Counted from the first letter of the stretch, positions 3,398 through 11,147 are shown. The stretch: 11,147 nucleotides of DNA from a virus (IMGVR_UViG_2541047774_000004); one strand, 5' to 3'. The notes: generated by a model not told the origin, from the sequence alone. Made by a program: numbers and translations.

Positions 3398-6300
3398 ATG
3401 GGTAAAGGCAGCAGTAAGGGGCATACCCCGCGCGAAGCGAAGGACAACCTGAAATCATCCCAGATGCTGAGCGTGATAGACGCCATCAGTGAAGGGCCGA
3501 TTGAAGGTCCGGTGGACGGATTAAAAAGTGTGCTGCTGAACAGTACGCCAGTGCTGGACAGTGAGGGGAATACCAATATCTCCGGTGTCACGGTGGTTTT
3601 CCGGGCAGGTGAGCAGGAGCAGACACCGCCGGAGGGATTTGAATCCTCCGGCTCCGAGACGGTGCTGGGTACGGAAGTGAAGTACGACACGCCGATTACC
3701 CGGACCATCACGTCTGCAAACATCGACCGTCTGCGCTTTACCTTCGGTGTGCAGGCACTGGTGGAAACCACCTCAAAGGGGGACCGGAATCCGTCGGAAG
3801 TCCGCCTGCTGGTTCAGATACAGCGTAACGGTGGCTGGGTGACGGAAAAAGACATCACCATTAAAGGCAAAACCACCTCGCAGTATCTGGCATCGGTGGT
3901 GGTGGGTAACCTGCCGCCGCGCCCGTTCAATATCCGGATGCGCAGGATGACGCCGGACAGCACCACAGACCAGCTGCAGAACAAAACGCTCTGGTCGTCA
4001 TACACCGAAATCATCGATGTGAAACAGTGCTACCCGAACACGGCACTGGTCGGCGTACAGGTGGATTCGGAGCAGTTCGGCAGCCAGCAGGTGAGCCGTA
4101 ATTATCATCTGCGCGGGCGTATTCTGCAGGTGCCGTCGAACTATAACCCGCAGACGCGGCAATACAGCGGTATCTGGGACGGAACGTTTAAGCCAGCATA
4201 CAGCAATAACATGGCCTGGTGTCTGTGGGATATGCTGACCCATCCACGCTACGGCATGGGGAAACGTCTTGGTGCGGCGGATGTGGACAAATGGGCGCTG
4301 TATGTCATCGGCCAGTACTGCGACCAGTCAGTGCCGGACGGCTTTGGCAGCACGGAGCCGCGCATCACCTGTAATGCCTGGCTGACCACACAGCGAAAGG
4401 CGTGGGATGTGCTCAGTGATTTCTGCTCGGCGATGCGCTGTATGCCGGTATGGAACGGGCAGACGCTGACGTTCGTGCAGGACCGACCGTCGGATAAGGT
4501 GTGGACCTATAACCGCAGTAATGTGGTGATGCCGGATGATGGCGCGCCGTTCCGCTACAGCTTCAGCGCCCTGAAAGACCGCCATAATGCCGTTGAGGTG
4601 AACTGGATTGACCCGAACAACGGCTGGGAGACGGCGACAGAGCTTGTGGAGGATACGCAGGCCATTGCCCGTTACGGTCGTAACGTCACGAAGATGGATG
4701 CCTTTGGCTGTACCAGCCGGGGGCAGGCACACCGCGCCGGGCTGTGGCTGATTAAAACGGAACTGCTGGAGACGCAGACCGTGGATTTCAGCGTGGGCGC
4801 AGAAGGGCTTCGCCATGTGCCGGGCGATGTTATTGAAATCTGCGATGATGACTATGCGGGGATCAGCATCGGCGGGCGCGTGCTGGCTGTGAACAGCCAG
4901 ACCCGGACGCTGACGCTCGACCGTGAAATCACGCTGCCATCCTCCGGTACCACGCTGATAAGCCTGGTTGACGGAAGTGGCAATCCGGTCAGCGTGGAGG
5001 TCCAGTCCGTCACCGACGGCGTGAAGGTAAAAGTGAGCCGTGTTCCTGACGGCGTTGCCGGATACAGCGTATGGGGGCTGAAGCTGCCGACGCTGCGCCA
5101 GCGCCTGTTCCGCTGCGTGAGTATCCGTGAGAACGATGACGGCACGTATGCCATCACCGCCGTGCAGCATGTACCAGAAAAAGAGGCCATCGTGGATAAC
5201 GGGGCGCACTTTGACGGCGACCAGAGCGGCACGGTGAATGGTGTCACGCCGCCAGCAGTGCAGCACCTGACTGCCGAAGTCACCGCAGACAGCGGGGAAT
5301 ATCAGGTGCTGGCGCGCTGGGACACGCCGAAGGTGGTGAAGGGGGTGAGCTTTATGCTTCGCCTGACCGTGGCAGCGGATGACGGCAGTGAGCGGCTGGT
5401 CAGCACGGCCCGGACGGCGGAAACCACATACCGCTTCACGCAACTGGCGCTGGGGAACTACAGGCTGACAGTCCGGGCAGTAAATGCCCGGGGGCAGCAG
5501 GGAGACCCGGCGTCGGTATCGTTCCGGATTGCCGCCCCGGCAGCGCCGTCGCGGATTGAGCTGACACCGGGCTATTTTCAGATAACCGCCACGCCGCATC
5601 TTGCGGTTTATGACCCGACGGTACAGTTTGAGTTCTGGTTCTCGGAAAAACGGATTGCTGATATCAGGCAGGTTGAAACCACAGCCCGCTATCTTGGCAC
5701 GGCGCTGTACTGGATAGCTGCCAGTATCAATATCAAACCGGGCCATGATTATTACTTTTATATCCGCAGTGTGAACACCGTTGGCAAATCGGCATTCGTG
5801 GAGGCCGTCGGTCGGGCGAGCGATGATGCGGAAGGTTACCTGGATTTTTTCAAAGGCCAGATAACCGAATCCCATCTCGGTAAAGAGCTGCTGGAAAAAG
5901 TTGATTTGACGGAGGATAACGCCAGCAGACTGGATGAGTTTTCGAAAGAGTGGAAGGACGCTAACGATAAATGGAATGCCATGTGGGGCGTCAAAATTGA
6001 GCAGACCAAAGACGGCAAACATTATGTCGCGGGTATTGGCCTCAGCATGGAGGACACGGAGGAAGGCAAGCTGAGCCAGTTTCTGGTTGCCGCTAACCGT
6101 ATCGCGTTTATTGACCCGGCAAACGGGAATGAAACGCCGATGTTTGTGGCGCAGGGCAACCAGATATTCATGAACGACGTGTTCCTGAAACGCCTGACGG
6201 CCCCCACCATTACCAGCGGTGGCAGTCCTCCGGTATTTTCCCTGACATCAGACGGAAAGCTGACCGCTAAAAATGCGGATATCAGTGGTAGTGTGAATGC

Positions 6301-6811
6301 GAACTCAGGAACGCTCAACAATGTCACGATTAACCAGAACTGTACGATTAAGGGCATGCTGGAGGCGACTCAGGTCAGAGGTGACTTCGTTAAAGCTGTA
6401 TCCAAATCATTTCCGAAACAGGCTGGTACGTGGGGTAACACGGAAACACCAAACGGGACGGTTACAGTCACCATCAGCGATGATCATAACTTTGACCGTC
6501 AAATCATTATTCCGCCCATTATCTTTAACGGAATAGCGTATAGCGATCCGGGAAGTGGTAATAACCCGGGAGGTACAAGATACACGGGTTATGGTTTTGA
6601 AGTTCGCAAAAACGGTGTATTAATCGCATCCAGAGAAACTAAAGGGGCCATTCCCGGTAGCTACAGTGCGGTTATTGATATGCCGAGTGGCAGGGGAAGC
6701 GTCACTCTGGAGTTTAAGGTTTTCCATAAAGGCAATCAGTGGGCAGGTAATATCACCGACTGTACGGTGATTGTGACCAAAAAAGCCGCTTCCGGCATCA
6801 GTATTCGTTGA
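3398..6811 (+). CDS. J: Central tail fibre / host specificity protein J, 1137 aa
   Basis: 1137-aa [57 protein letters not shown]..., recalled as near-identical to lambda gpJ (1132 aa) over most of its length; GAGG immediately upstream of the ATG; follows I after a 60-nt gap. Confidence 0.95.
6320..6808 (+). other. Divergent, lower-GC C-terminal (receptor-binding) segment of J
   Basis: Base composition drops sharply (one 60-nt line at 6481-6540 counts 22 G+C, versus 39 G+C for 5401-5460). The protein departs from the recalled lambda gpJ C-terminus after about ...[15 protein letters not shown], while keeping the ...VIVTKKA.SGIS.. ending pattern. Confidence 0.5.
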
Positions 6812-6880: not shown

Positions 6881-7480
6881 ATGCGTAAATTATGTGCTGT
6901 TATTCTGTCTGCAGTAGTCTGGCTGGTCGCCGCTGGTACGCCAGCGAGTGCAGCAGAGCATCAGTCCACACTAAGCGGCGGGTATCTTCAGTCCCATACT
7001 GATATGCCCGGCAACGATGACCTGAAGGGCATTAACGTGAAATACCGTTATGAGTTTACGGACACGCTGGGGATGGTGACGTCATTCAGCTATGCAGAAG
7101 ACAAGAATCGCCAGCTGACTCATTACAGCGATACCCGCTGGCATGAAGATTCCGTGCGTAACCGCTGGTTCAGCGTGATGGCGGGGCCGTCTGTGCGCGT
7201 GAATGAATGGTTCAGCGCGTATGCGATGGCGGGTGTGGCTTACAGCCGTATTTCGACTTTCTCCGGGGATTATCTCCGCGTAACTGACAACAAGGGGAAA
7301 ACGCACGACGTGCTGACCGGAAGTGATGACGGTCGCCGCAGCAACACGTCTCTGGCGTGGGGGGCTGGCGTGCAGTTTAACCCGACCGAATCCGTGGCCA
7401 TTGATATTGCTTATGAAGGCTCCGGCAGTGGCGACTGGCGCACTGACGGTTTCATCGTGGGTGTCGGTTATAAATTCTGA
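6881..7480 (+). CDS. lom: Lom outer membrane protein (Ail/Lom/PagC-family beta-barrel), 199 aa; lysogenic-conversion moron
   Basis: 199-aa ORF with N-terminal signal peptide MRKLCAVILSAVVWLVAAGTPASA followed by AEHQ (A-x-A cleavage site), alternating aromatic/hydrophobic beta-strand pattern and C-terminal ...GVGYKF; GAGAGG 6 nt upstream of ATG; same position as lambda lom between J and stf. Confidence 0.9.
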   Translation: MRKLCAVILSAVVWLVAAGTPASAAEHQSTLSGGYLQSHTDMPGNDDLKGINVKYRYEFTDTLGMVTSFSYAEDKNRQLTHYSDTRWHEDSVRNRWFSVMAGPSVRVNEWFSAYAMAGVAYSRISTFSGDYLRVTDNKGKTHDVLTGSDDGRRSNTSLAWGAGVQFNPTESVAIDIAYEGSGSGDWRTDGFIVGVGYKF

Positions 7481-7506: not shown

Positions 7507-7533
7507 AGCCCGCCGGTTCAGGCGGGCTTTTTT
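7507..7533 (+). terminator. Rho-independent terminator downstream of lom
   Basis: AGCCCGCC (7507-7514), loop GGTTCA, GGCGGGCT (7521-7528) followed by a T-run through 7533; 27 nt after the lom stop. Confidence 0.65.
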
Positions 7534-7544
7534 GTGGGGTGAAT

Positions 7545-10500
7545 ATGGCAGTAAAGATTTCAGGTGTACTGAAAGACGGTGCAGGTAAACCGGTACAGAA
7601 CTGCACAATCCAGCTGAAAGCAAAACGTAACAGCACCACGGTGGTGGTGAACACGGTGGCATCTGAAAATCCGGATGAAGCCGGGCGTTACAGCATGGAC
7701 GTTGAGTACGGTCAGTACCGCGTTATTCTGTTGGTGGAAGGATTCCCGCCGTCACATGCCGGGACCATCACCGTGTATGAAGATTCTCAACCCGGTACGC
7801 TGAATGATTTTCTCGGTGCCATGACGGAGGATGATGCCCGTCCGGAGGCACTGCGCCGTTTTGAACTGATGGTGGAAGAGGTGGCGCGTAACGCGTCCGC
7901 AGTGGCACAGAACACGGCAGCCGCAAAGAAGTCAGCCAGCGATGCCGGCACATCTGCCCGTGAGGCGGCAACCCATGCAACCGATGCTGCAGGCTCAGCA
8001 CGTGCCGCCAGCACGTCAGCCGGACAGGCTGCATCATCTGCTCAGTCAGCATCTTCCAGCGCAGGAACGGCATCAACAAAGGCCACTGAAGCATTAAAAA
8101 GTGCTGCCGCTGCAGAGTCCTCAAAAAGCGCGGCAGCCACCAGTGCCGGTGCGGCGAAAACGTCAGAAACGAATGCCGCAGCATCACAACTATCAGCAGC
8201 CACTTCTGCATCCACCGCGACCACGAAGGCGTCAGAAGCTGCCACCTCAGCCCGGGATGCGGCGGCCTCAAAAGAGGCAGCGAAATCATCAGAAACGAAC
8301 GCATCATCAAGTGCCAGTAGTGCAGCTTCCTCGGCAACGGCGGCAGGAAATTCCGCGAAGGCCGCAAAAACGTCTGAGACGAATGCGGATAACAGCGCAC
8401 AGGCGGCAGCAGACTCACAAACTGCATCGGCAAACTCCGCGACAGCAGCCAAAAAATCAGAAACCAACGCGAAAAATAGCGAGGCAGCAGCAAAGAGCAG
8501 CGAAACAAACGCTAAAGCCAGCGAAACTAATGCTAAATCCAGTGAAACAAACGCGGCGAAATCTGCGGCGGACGCACTTAATTATTGCAACCAGGCGCAA
8601 GTAATTGTTGGCGATAATATCGGTCTTGGCTCAGCCCCGCGTGATTGTCCTGATATTTCCGGCAACCCATCAGGGTATATCGGATTTATGCGCATTATGA
8701 GTAATGCAAAAGGCTTTCCATCGATTGCATCCGGTGAAAGCAGTCTTACGGGGTTTATTAGTCAGGTAGATGGAACACCAGCGTATACAGGTGTATTTCA
8801 GGGATGGGCTACGCGCTCGCTTTATACTTATCGCTGGAATCCGACAACAGGCCCGCAATGGACACGCCACGCTCGCAAAAATGAAGTGGACCGTCTTGAC
8901 CAATGGAATAGCGAAACATGGTTATATAACCATGATAAATCCATGCGCCTGGGTTTAACCGGATCAACATGGGGGTGTTACAGCGACACACAAAAAAAAT
9001 GGATACCGCTTGATGTTTCTCATGGTGGCACTGGCGCAAATAGCCTTGATGACGCCAAAACTAATTTGCAAATCCCTGAGGGTGGATTAACAAAAGCGAT
9101 GACCCTTAATGCCCCTGGTGGTGCAGTGGATGGCAAATACTACCCTGTCATAATAGACACATCTGCAATGAATGGGAGCGGTGCCATGTTATGTCCTGTT
9201 GAAATAAAAACAGCAGGAGGTCCGGCATCAAATCCGCTTAATAGTAACTCATTTTTTGGGTTCATTCGATGTGGTGGCTGGAGTGACGTTCGCGATGTGG
9301 CTTACGGGTCATTTGTTTGCTATGAAAAAAATGAACTCGGGATACTTTGCATTAAAGCGTCGCAAAGAGATTATGCGCAGCATGTAGCTTTCTACATCCA
9401 TAAAAGCGCTTTTCCTGTCGTTGTGCAAACTGGCTACAAGGCGAAAGTTAAGGTTCCAACAGAAGACTACGTAATTGGTGACAACGGGGTTAGATATAAG
9501 TTTGGTGTATCAACGTCAACGGAGGATAACGACAAGAACTTTGTTAAAAATGTTCTTGACTTCACTGGCGGTGAACATGGCTTCTACAGCAACCTTCCGT
9601 TCAGACAAGGGGTGTCAGAAAGGATTGCATTAACAAATGGCCTGAGTTTTGACAAAAATTTTACCGTCACTATTCCTATATTTGTAAACAATGGTCAGAT
9701 TAAAGCAACACAATCTTTCACCGCGTACGGTACAGACGCTTCAAACAGAACATTTGTTTCTCAAAGATTACAATCCGAAGGAGGTCCGGTTGTCGATCAA
9801 ACTGAACTAAGGGCCGCTAACGCTTCTGGTGAAATTATTGTCAGGGACATAAATAATTCAGGGAACAGTAAGTTCTTTAATTTTAACCTTGATGGTACCT
9901 TCAGTTCTTACCAGGGATTGGTTGTTCACACAGGGCAAAACTGGAGCACTCAACATACAGATAATGTAAATAAGTTTAAGCCAATAGCAGGGAGCGCAGG
10001 CGGTCCTGACGGAACAATGGTTGTTGGCGGATTCCATGCTCAATTTAGCGGTAATTACGTCACACAATTCGCCGGTCGCAACTCCAAATTTTGGGCAAGA
10101 AGCTTTGAGGCTGGGGTTGATAAGGGATGGAAACGACTATTAACAGTAGACGATCTCAATTCATCTACCGATCTTGCTGTCAGGTCATTAACCACATCTA
10201 ACCCGGTAAAATCTGGCGGAGGGCGAATTGATGTCCTTGGAAGCACGTCAGACTATAGCAAAATGGATTGCTTTGTACGTGGGTTTGATAGCACCGGTAA
10301 TTCTCTCGCGTGGGCGTTGGGTTCATCAGTCGGCGTAAGTAAGATGCTGTCGCTAAAAAATTTCTTTAGCGGAGCTGAGATACTGTTAAATGGTAATGAC
10401 GGCGCGGTTCAACTCAAAACAGGTGCTGTTAACGGGGCTAAAGCGCAGGCGCTCACTATCAACAAGGATGAGGTTAATTCAACTGTTGATTTAACTCTTA

Positions 10501-11147
10501 CAAAACAAACAGGGACTGGCAATCGTTTTGTTTTACAGAACTTAGGTAATACAGAACTATCATTTGCCGCAAAAGTATGGGGATCAAGTGATCGACAAAA
10601 CGTTTTTGAGGTTGGAACGTCTGCTGCGTATCTGTTTTATGCGCAAAAAACGTCAGCAGGCCAGTTGTTTGATGTAAATGGCGCTATTAATTGCACAACG
10701 CTGAATCAGTCATCAGACCGCGACCTTAAAGACGATATTCTCGTTATCAGCGACGCGACGAAAGCAATCCGTAAAATGAACGGATACACCTACACGCTCA
10801 GGGAAAACGGGATGCCTTATGCTGGCGTTATTGCACAGGAAGTAATGGAGGCGATACCAGAAGCTGTGGGATCGTTTACTCATTACGGTGAAGAGTTGCA
10901 GGGACCAACGGTTGACGGCAATGAATTACGTGAAGAAACACGTTATCTGAATGTTGACTACGCCGCCGTGACGGGGTTACTTGTTCAGGTCGCCCGTGAA
11001 ACAGATGGTCGCGTTACCGCGCTGGAAGAGGAAAACATAACGCTACGTAAAAATCTGGCAACAGCAGGCACCCGGATCAGCACTCTGGAAAATCAGGTAA
11101 GCGAACTGGTTGCACTTGTCGGGCAGTTAACAGGAAGCGAACATTGA
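7545..11147 (+). CDS. stf: Side tail fibre protein (Stf-like): lambda-Stf-like N-terminus, Ala/Ser-rich repetitive shaft, divergent distal region, C-terminal intramolecular chaperone domain; about 1200 aa
   Basis: Continuous ORF to TGA at 11145-11147. N-terminus MAVKISGVLKDGAGKPVQNCTIQLKAKRNSTTVVVNTV...GQYRVILLVEGFPPSHAGTITVYEDSQPGTLNDFL matches the recalled lambda Stf N-terminus, followed by SETNA-containing Ala/Ser-rich repeats. The ORF track starts at GTG 7539 (MNM...); ATG 7545 (MAVKISG) is preferred by analogy to lambda Stf. Confidence 0.9.
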   Translation: MAVKISGVLKDGAGKPVQNCTIQLKAKRNSTTVVVNTVASENPDEAGRYSMDVEYGQYRVILLVEGFPPSHAGTITVYEDSQPGTLNDFLGAMTEDDARPEALRRFELMVEEVARNASAVAQNTAAAKKSASDAGTSAREAATHATDAAGSARAASTSAGQAASSAQSASSSAGTASTKATEALKSAAAAESSKSAAATSAGAAKTSETNAAASQLSAATSASTATTKASEAATSARDAAASKEAAKSSETNASSSASSAASSATAAGNSAKAAKTSETNADNSAQAAADSQTASANSATAAKKSETNAKNSEAAAKSSETNAKASETNAKSSETNAAKSAADALNYCNQAQVIVGDNIGLGSAPRDCPDISGNPSGYIGFMRIMSNAKGFPSIASGESSLTGFISQVDGTPAYTGVFQGWATRSLYTYRWNPTTGPQWTRHARKNEVDRLDQWNSETWLYNHDKSMRLGLTGSTWGCYSDTQKKWIPLDVSHGGTGANSLDDAKTNLQIPEGGLTKAMTLNAPGGAVDGKYYPVIIDTSAMNGSGAMLCPVEIKTAGGPASNPLNSNSFFGFIRCGGWSDVRDVAYGSFVCYEKNELGILCIKASQRDYAQHVAFYIHKSAFPVVVQTGYKAKVKVPTEDYVIGDNGVRYKFGVSTSTEDNDKNFVKNVLDFTGGEHGFYSNLPFRQGVSERIALTNGLSFDKNFTVTIPIFVNNGQIKATQSFTAYGTDASNRTFVSQRLQSEGGPVVDQTELRAANASGEIIVRDINNSGNSKFFNFNLDGTFSSYQGLVVHTGQNWSTQHTDNVNKFKPIAGSAGGPDGTMVVGGFHAQFSGNYVTQFAGRNSKFWARSFEAGVDKGWKRLLTVDDLNSSTDLAVRSLTTSNPVKSGGGRIDVLGSTSDYSKMDCFVRGFDSTGNSLAWALGSSVGVSKMLSLKNFFSGAEILLNGNDGAVQLKTGAVNGAKAQALTINKDEVNSTVDLTLTKQTGTGNRFVLQNLGNTELSFAAKVWGSSDRQNVFEVGTSAAYLFYAQKTSAGQLFDVNGAINCTTLNQSSDRDLKDDILVISDATKAIRKMNGYTYTLRENGMPYAGVIAQEVMEAIPEAVGSFTHYGEELQGPTVDGNELREETRYLNVDYAAVTGLLVQVARETDGRVTALEEENITLRKNLATAGTRISTLENQVSELVALVGQLTGSEH
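8150..8565 (+). repeat. In-frame degenerate peptide repeats (K-[ST]-SETNA...) in the Stf shaft, ending in three tandem 21-nt units
   Basis: Protein motifs AKTSETNAAASQ, AKSSETNASSSA, AKTSETNADNSA, KKSETNAKNSE, then tandem SETNAKA-SETNAKS-SETNAAK encoded at about 8497-8565 (agcgaaacaaacgctaaagcc / agcgaaactaatgctaaatcc / agtgaaacaaacgcggcgaaa). Confidence 0.6.
10713..11144 (+). other. C-terminal intramolecular chaperone / autoproteolytic domain of Stf (peptidase S74-like, as in endosialidase and T5 L-shaped fibre)
   Basis: Motif NQSSDRDLKDDILVISDATKAIRKMNGYTYTL with Ser (codon 10713-10715) and Lys (codon 10728-10730) spaced S-x4-K, followed by a heptad-like C-terminal helix ...TALEEENITLRKNLATAGTRISTLENQVSELVALVGQL at the protein end. 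Confidence 0.6.

Follow-up and report, generated by a model that had tools for sequence, protein, structure and literature searches.

Modular exchange is classically exemplified by tail fibre genes, and S74 chaperones are well described in the fibres that such genes encode. In phage lambda, the side tail fibre (Stf, encoded by orf-401 and orf-314 as in Ur-lambda) has a tip resembling T4 gp37 and needs a separate chaperone, Tfa, while the founding member of the Peptidase_S74 family is the C-terminal domain of endoNF, the endosialidase of phage K1F. The S74 mechanism has been summarised as trimer folding followed by self-cleavage, and in the lateral tail fibre of phage T5 (pb1, or Ltf) the Thr1263-Ser1264 bond is cut with Ser1264 acting as the catalytic residue and Lys1269 activating it; an S1264A variant stays uncleaved, and the 133-residue chaperone hides the receptor site until its release (PMC4690869). 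Here we analysed the side tail fibre gene (stf) of a viral DNA stretch, IMGVR_UViG_2541047774_000004, whose whole length of 11,147 nt is referred to as the window. The gene is intact and occupies positions 7545..11147 on the + strand (1200 codons plus stop), with its ATG at 7545 and its stop codon at 11145-11147, which is the exact end of the window. Gene coordinates below are window positions and residue numbers are those of the Stf protein.

Our analysis indicates, with a probability of roughly 0.78, that the stf product is the side tail fibre of an mEp460-type lambdoid prophage and a homotrimeric mosaic, in which a lambda-type anchor is combined with a distal part of the T5-like and Queuovirinae lateral fibre kind and with an S74 chaperone, and that this fibre is self-processing, independent of Tfa and derived from a cassette replacement. 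A previous interpretation made from the DNA alone (the sequence-only reading) had proposed a chimeric fibre with a lambda-like N-terminus, a low-GC distal module acquired horizontally and a built-in chaperone, and it is supported here with minor corrections to its junctions. The term chimeric is appropriate relative to lambda, but not in the sense of a one-off fusion, as the combination of anchor and S74 domain is also found in Nonagvirus fibres.

The same gene is present in phage mEp460 (AFM76057.1; 99.1% nucleotide identity), and an identical protein is recorded for Escherichia coli in RefSeq as WP_000268784.1, its gene being 100% identical in N61 and seven of the chromosomes listed matching at 100.0%. 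Gene length, the position after J and lom and the scar of a tfa gene downstream all agree between these loci and the window gene, while elsewhere in the window identity to mEp460 and the chromosomal records is just 96.5–98.5%. It is important to note that the feature is already known and catalogued rather than new, because RefSeq names the identical protein for both of its domains ('prophage tail fiber N-terminal domain and S74 family endopeptidase-containing protein'), the allele was deposited with mEp460, and both fibre-tip exchange and S74 chaperones are established. For phage biology this is an unremarkable finding, and its practical value is modest.

The N-terminal end of the protein is clearly lambda-like. 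Residues 1-134 (7545..7946, + strand) form a tail-attachment anchor that matches the Pfam family PF08400 (phage_tail_N) with an E-value of 1.3e-71, and residues 1-94 match the solved anchor of lambda Stf (PDB chain 9e7m, E 4.6e-51). Over residues 1-343 the identity to lambda orf-401, the N-terminal part of Stf, is 77% at the amino acid level, and in blastn the DNA at 7545..8386 (+ strand) is 87% identical to nt 1-842 of lambda stf, in line with the proposal that the first ~340 codons are GC-rich and resemble lambda. Most lambdoid phages in GenBank have only query positions 1-839/842 in common with the gene, at ~95% identity. Beyond residue ~343 the sole alignment to lambda Stf was a low-complexity match of 23% identity (E 2e-4), located in the shaft and not in the tip, and no homology of the distal part to the C-terminus of lambda Stf (orf-314) was found. 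The two proteins therefore share the anchor with its PF08400 domain, an Ala/Ser-rich shaft and a gene position following J and lom, whereas the distal two-thirds of lambda Stf are unrelated to those of the window Stf.

The shaft itself spans residues 111-344 (7875..8576, + strand) and is characterised by its composition (36% Ala, 21% Ser, 11% Thr, 8% Lys) and by seven SETNA motifs at residues 207-333; a GC change point at 8450 falls inside it. A tandem repeat with a 21-nt unit was found at 8498-8554. The expected passage from an Ala/Ser-rich shaft to a Gly/Asn/Thr-rich sequence is evident, residues 345-1056 being composed of 11% Gly, 9% Ser, 8% Thr and 8% Asn. At 8271-8516 the shaft DNA matches the 5' portion of T5 ltf with 81% identity, the shaft protein is 57% identical to the pb1 shaft, and a profile search of the PDB showed SETNA-type repeats in the Klebsiella phage depolymerases 7vz3 and 7lzj as well. 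The shaft is likely a recombination zone, and its low-complexity sequence, common to very different phage groups, may serve as a substrate for recombination. The junction that had been placed at ~8570 is accordingly better described as a transition, in which lambda-like DNA ends at ~8386, the segment resembling T5 ltf follows and overlaps it, and the conserved distal module starts at ~8616. Opposite the Ala/Ser-rich shaft, the minus strand holds an antisense open reading frame of 246 codons (7768-8508) in the same place as the annotated 'orf206b' of lambda; most likely this frame reflects the GCN/TCN-rich repeats and does not constitute a gene.

The distal part has its relatives among the lateral tail fibres of other siphoviruses. 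The conserved module begins at about residue 358 (IGLG), and over residues ~358-1056 the lateral tail fibre of FritzHoffmann (Bas20, QXV79286.1), a virulent Nonagvirus, is 83% identical in amino acid sequence and 85.5% identical in DNA sequence (over 2.2 kb). For slur09, a T5-like phage, the fibre from the ltf locus showed 69% amino acid and 77% nucleotide identity, and dozens of Tequintavirus, Epseptimavirus and Queuovirinae fibres (E. coli, Salmonella) showed 36–46% amino acid identity. The whole distal module is common to slur09 and many Tequintavirus or Epseptimavirus fibres at 37–69% amino acid identity. At least 80% of the distal part was covered by 52 phage records and, among those listed, most were T5-like Demerecviridae or Queuovirinae. 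Additionally, the protein matched phrog_6578, a family of full-length tail fibres, with an E-value of 1.4e-300. The slur09 fibre gene lies in the ltf position, after the collar protein, and by sequence the distal part is homologous to fibres encoded at the ltf locus of these phages. The module was found behind four different N-terminal anchors, namely the lambda Stf type, the Nonagvirus type (also PF08400), a type beginning with 'MIYTTGTIA' and the T5 pb1 type. These matches, together with the missing counterpart in lambda, bear out the suggestion that the distal module is foreign to a lambda-type fibre.

FritzHoffmann also matches in overall architecture, its fibre having the same order of PF08400 anchor, shaft, distal modules A, B and C and S74 domain. 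Its anchor and first ~240 residues nevertheless gave no BLASTP alignment with the window Stf, although both carry PF08400; its module B is the other allele (~70% identical), its last ~45 residues differ, and the phage is virulent with 43% GC. T5 pb1 has in common with the window Stf the SETNA-type shaft and the Ser/Lys dyad of the C-terminal chaperone, and in BLASTP its similarity is limited to the shaft and the chaperone junction. Its N-terminal attachment differs, as pb1 docks on the collar protein.

A change in base composition lies within the gene. GC content is 56.1% over codons 1-345 and 45.2% in the remainder, and the 60-nt counts given in the sequence-only reading are exact (38/60 G+C at 7921-7980; 19/60 at 9661-9720). 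The best single change point in a likelihood scan was 8450 (codon 303), with 57.4% GC to its left and 45.3% to its right, and its log-likelihood ratio (LLR) of 20.0 exceeded the maximum of 8.3 reached over 200 permutations; the drop is therefore far beyond chance and the compositional break is real. The break had been described as an abrupt fall near 8570, but while the drop stands, neither its abruptness nor its site does: the fall is graded, with 300-nt windows giving 0.59, 0.53, 0.49 and 0.47 down to 0.39 at 9601-9900, a slide of ~1.5 kb.

Part of this pattern could arise in the absence of any transfer. To a large extent the elevated GC of the left side is an amino acid effect, as Ala and Ser codons inflate the GC of the shaft; its GC content at second codon positions (GC2) is 0.76–0.84, while that at third positions (GC3) is only 0.38–0.48. 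GC3 drops already near codon 143, within the lambda-like part (from 0.57 to 0.40), in a break that is itself marginal (LLR 7.6, compared with up to 8.3 in permutations), and lambda shows a similar dip in its own shaft (GC3 0.48) as well as values for distal stf (GC 0.52) and tfa (0.49) below those of its tail genes. The break could on these grounds be ascribed to the amino acid content of the two halves and to a generally lower GC of fibre tips, with vertical inheritance among lambdoid phages. We regard this explanation as highly improbable. The GC3 of the distal modules (0.37–0.39) is still well under that of stf codons 1-150 (0.56–0.58) and of the upstream tail genes (0.60–0.73), the distal DNA that matches a virulent Nonagvirus so closely is without a lambda counterpart, the module stands behind four unrelated anchors, and a tfa scar lies at the 3' junction. 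Overall, the homology pattern largely refutes inheritance without transfer.

The C-terminal domain supports the presence of an S74-like chaperone that had been proposed for this fibre. The Peptidase_S74 family (PF13884) was matched at residues 1057-1108 with an E-value of 1e-12 and 48.6 bits against a cut-off of 22, and the chaperone as a whole comprises the C-terminal 144 residues, 1057-1200 (10713..11144, + strand), including a predicted C-terminal helix. In the BLASTP alignment, S1056-S1057-D-R-D-L-K1062 corresponds to T1263-S1264-D-A-R-L-K1269 of T5 pb1, which brings Ser1057 and Lys1062 into register with the catalytic pair Ser1264/Lys1269. None of the 26 aligned homologues deviates at either position, and the same motif occurs in S16 gp37 (PDB 6f45). 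The predicted autoproteolysis site is the Ser1056/Ser1057 bond, with Lys1062 in the motif SSDRDLK (10710..10730, + strand), so that the predicted mature fibre consists of residues 1-1056 and the released chaperone of residues 1057-1200. Similarity to endoNF, which belongs to the same Pfam family through its C-terminal domain, is confined to the ~52-residue S74 core, and unlike endoNF the window Stf has no sialidase or other enzymatic domain upstream of S74. In the AlphaFold2 (AF2) monomer model, helices were placed at residues ~1058-1079, 1093-1111 and 1138-1195, with confidence (predicted local distance difference test, pLDDT) of 72–78 in the last only, and the helix at ~1138-1195 is probably a coiled coil.

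A block-wise identity profile further showed that the last ~45 residues (~1155-1200, window 10995-11144) vary in step with the kind of anchor at the N-terminus: identity is 90–99% within lambdoid alleles and 53–60% in alleles of the 'MIYTTGTIA' type, and in Nonagvirus and T5-like fibres these residues are 23–33% identical or gapped. Because of this co-variation, the 3' exchange point lies inside the chaperone in many recombinants.

The presence of an S74 domain in place of a Tfa-dependent tip is matched by the state of the downstream region. As the window ends at the stf stop codon, the downstream DNA was read from near-identical relatives, the first 160 nt past the stop being 97% identical between mEp460 and the chromosome. 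The absence of a usable tfa gene, which had been expected, was found in all of these relatives: no tfa follows stf in 8/8 chromosomal places with the identical protein, and a separate tfa directly downstream, as found with a lambda-type Stf, is likewise missing in mEp460 and N61. In mEp460, N61 and 3 of the 8 further chromosomal copies (those searched), only lambda-Tfa residues ~147-191 are left. This remnant has 41-45 codons with 80–83% identity to lambda-type Tfa, lacks the start and N-terminal part, and begins 36 nt past the stf stop (L002 15604-15780; L001 9604-9765). No tfa was found downstream of the FritzHoffmann fibre gene or of slur09 ltf either. The most plausible reading of this remnant is a 3' scar, left when an incoming cassette displaced the previous stf tip along with three-quarters of tfa. 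Where the lambda fibre needs its separate Tfa chaperone, the window fibre thus has an S74 domain, and tfa persists in its relatives as a scar.

The chromosome contains another tfa remnant 2.8 kb beyond the first. The next gene in 8/8 chromosomal places encodes a pin-type resolvase/invertase on the opposite strand (L006-L013, 9875-10465 minus), while in mEp460 the genes after stf are dinI and then int. A fibre segment inverted by pin was considered and rejected, because no inverted repeats flank it and both tfa remnants are in direct orientation.

The direction of transfer may be viewed in the opposite way, with the S74 fibre native to lambdoid or other Enterobacterial prophages and exported from there to T5-like phages and Queuovirinae, so that the lambda pair of Stf and Tfa would be the invader elsewhere. 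Prophages do constitute a large reservoir, as part of the distal DNA occurs in 818/5426 complete E. coli genomes (~15%), and 105 genomes (~2%) carry 80% of it or more. The Nonagvirus fibre is also anchored by PF08400, and the architecture may consequently be old in both groups; moreover, the last 45 residues of the lambdoid alleles resemble neither Nonagvirus nor T5-like fibres, with identities of only 23–33%. Export from prophages is nonetheless unlikely in our view, as the tfa remnant after the S74 allele shows that a fibre locus of the Tfa type predated the cassette, and the GC content of the module (42–47%) fits virulent phages (39–43%; 43.2% at the FritzHoffmann locus, 39–42% in slur09 with 41.5% for ltf) and not the lambdoid tail region (56–60%). 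Import into a lambda-type locus remains the preferred reading, in which a new distal cassette would have replaced part of the stf-tfa locus through crossovers within the repetitive shaft at the 5' side and inside tfa at the 3' side.

The distal part is itself a mosaic of three sub-modules. Module A (residues 345-520, 8577..9104, + strand) occurs in divergent alleles, and a GGTGA...AKTNLQ linker at residue 494 marks its end. A second AF2 model, of residues 358-520, was confident at residues 367-442 (pLDDT >90), where a knob-like beta domain is predicted (8643-8870, + strand). Module B (residues 521-765, 9105..9839, + strand) is the most variable cassette and the lowest in GC (0.424, with GC3 0.375, over residues 521-800); it falls into two allele classes ~70% identical, and P0112 and P0120 have an unrelated replacement in its place. 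Module B is a candidate specificity determinant. Module C (residues 766-1056, 9840..10712, + strand), the tip or stalk beside the chaperone, is the most conserved distal part, being mostly 97–99% identical among fibres with different anchors in the block-wise profile. Its DNA recurs together with that of the chaperone in E. coli proteins annotated by RefSeq as 'pyocin knob domain-containing S74 family peptidase', and a weak profile match to the C-terminal region of T4 gp34 was also obtained.

Conservation of the tip-proximal module with variation in the modules upstream of it is the only mildly unusual point of this fibre. Modules A and B are swapped independently. Tentatively and with rather low confidence, the host range determinants may therefore be placed in these two lateral modules (residues 345-765) and not in the tip. 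Module C and the chaperone (residues 766-1200) would then act as a portable 'folding foot' for a multi-site and possibly dual-receptor fibre, and the SETNA shaft and GGTGA...NLQ linkers might serve as adaptors for recombination across families, linking temperate with virulent siphoviruses.

With respect to function, the lambda-type anchor (residues 1-134) would dock the fibre on the tail tip. The S74 chaperone is expected to trimerise first, templating the fold of the adjoining distal region, and would then cut itself off at the Ser1056-Ser1057 bond by means of Ser1057 and Lys1062, leaving a mature fibre of ~1056 residues that would need no Tfa protein. The mature fibre would mediate fast, reversible primary adsorption, a role that lambda Stf and the window Stf likely have in common, with irreversible binding then proceeding through J. 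The receptor is, by analogy, most likely a surface glycan such as O-antigen or lipopolysaccharide: O-antigen is a dispensable primary receptor for T5-like lateral fibres (PMC8594841), with which the annotation of the T5 record agrees, and Stf helps Ur-lambda to overcome the O16 O-antigen (PMC11990801). Functional lambda-P2 Stf chimeras have been engineered (bioRxiv 10.1101/2022.09.30.509847), and grafts onto the lambda anchor can therefore work. The window gene offers a clean natural example of such a graft, in which the lambda Stf anchor carries a T5/9g-type receptor module without Tfa, and it is relevant to fibre engineering of lambda particles; the map of sub-modules A, B, C and chaperone, together with the crossover zones, could guide fibre grafts.

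The chromosomal copies offer a further perspective. In 5/8 chromosomal places with the identical Stf (L006, L008, L011, L012, L013) the prophage is degraded while stf is intact at 1200 codons; capsid or early-region genes abut stf in these prophages, and lom is truncated or missing. The gene might accordingly be a relic that is no longer used and is carried by defective prophages, in which case Stf would be as dispensable as it is in lambda PaPa and the S74 domain may or may not process. The visibly degraded contexts fit this explanation, as does the finding that lambda Stf is dispensable in the laboratory (PMC11990801). We nevertheless give it very little credence, as the open reading frame of 1200 codons is intact and identical in sequence in many genomes, the catalytic motif and ~330 invariant columns are kept across diverged homologues, the allele occurs in the isolated phage mEp460 with a complete tail operon, and the window carries an intact operon from H to stf.

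Several points weigh against the mosaic, self-processing fibre proposed here. The direction of transfer is argued from GC content alone, and, as given above, distal stf and tfa of lambda are also poorer in GC than the lambda tail genes. The absence of tfa is taken from near-identical relatives, the window itself ending at the stop codon, and many chromosomal copies sit in degraded prophages where expression is uncertain. The putative receptor-binding region, residues 345-1056, has no sequence match in Pfam or the PDB: neither the region as a whole nor any of sub-modules A, B and C gave a Pfam family even at E = 1, PDB sequence and profile searches returned nothing for residues 345-970, and NCBIfam gave no match to the whole protein. 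PDB matches were limited to the lambda Stf anchor, shaft-like repeats of depolymerases and T5 pb1, the S16 gp37 chaperone and, weakly, T4 gp34. The AF2 monomer of residues 345-1200, built on an alignment of 26 sequences, was poor, with a mean pLDDT of 46 and confidence only at ~365-445, and a Foldseek search of this model against the PDB gave template modelling scores of ~0.1, uninterpretable beyond a general tail fibre flavour. Glycan binding is an extrapolation from family context, because BLASTP, phmmer and profile comparisons detected no similarity in the distal part to the polymannose-binding bullet domain of T5 pb1 (residues 970-1263, receptor-binding). A tip module C that is the most conserved part of the distal sequence is unusual if the tip sets specificity. 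Lastly, among the listed papers that mention mEp460, titles and abstracts pointed to none on its fibre, and no experiment on the window Stf was found.

The remainder of the window corresponds to the distal tail operon of an E. coli lambdoid prophage in the order H-M-L-K-I-J-lom-stf, as assigned from Pfam matches of the upstream products, and stf takes the place of a lambda-type Stf gene at the end of the lambdoid tail operon, after J and lom. The operon begins in the window with the C-terminus only of the tape-measure protein H (268-996), followed by M (993-1322), L (1322-2020), K and I (between L and J, by Pfam), J (3398-6811) and lom (6881-7480). A Rho-independent terminator lies after lom and directly upstream of stf (7507..7538, + strand), with its stem at 7507-7528 containing seven GC pairs ahead of a T-run, and the mEp460 record annotates a terminator at the matching place. 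In J, GC and GC3 are 0.600 and 0.731 for residues 1-720 in comparison to 0.498 and 0.555 for residues 721-1137. Because both values fall there, the C-terminal receptor-binding third of J (5550-6811, codons ~721-1137) resembles a further exchanged module within the window.

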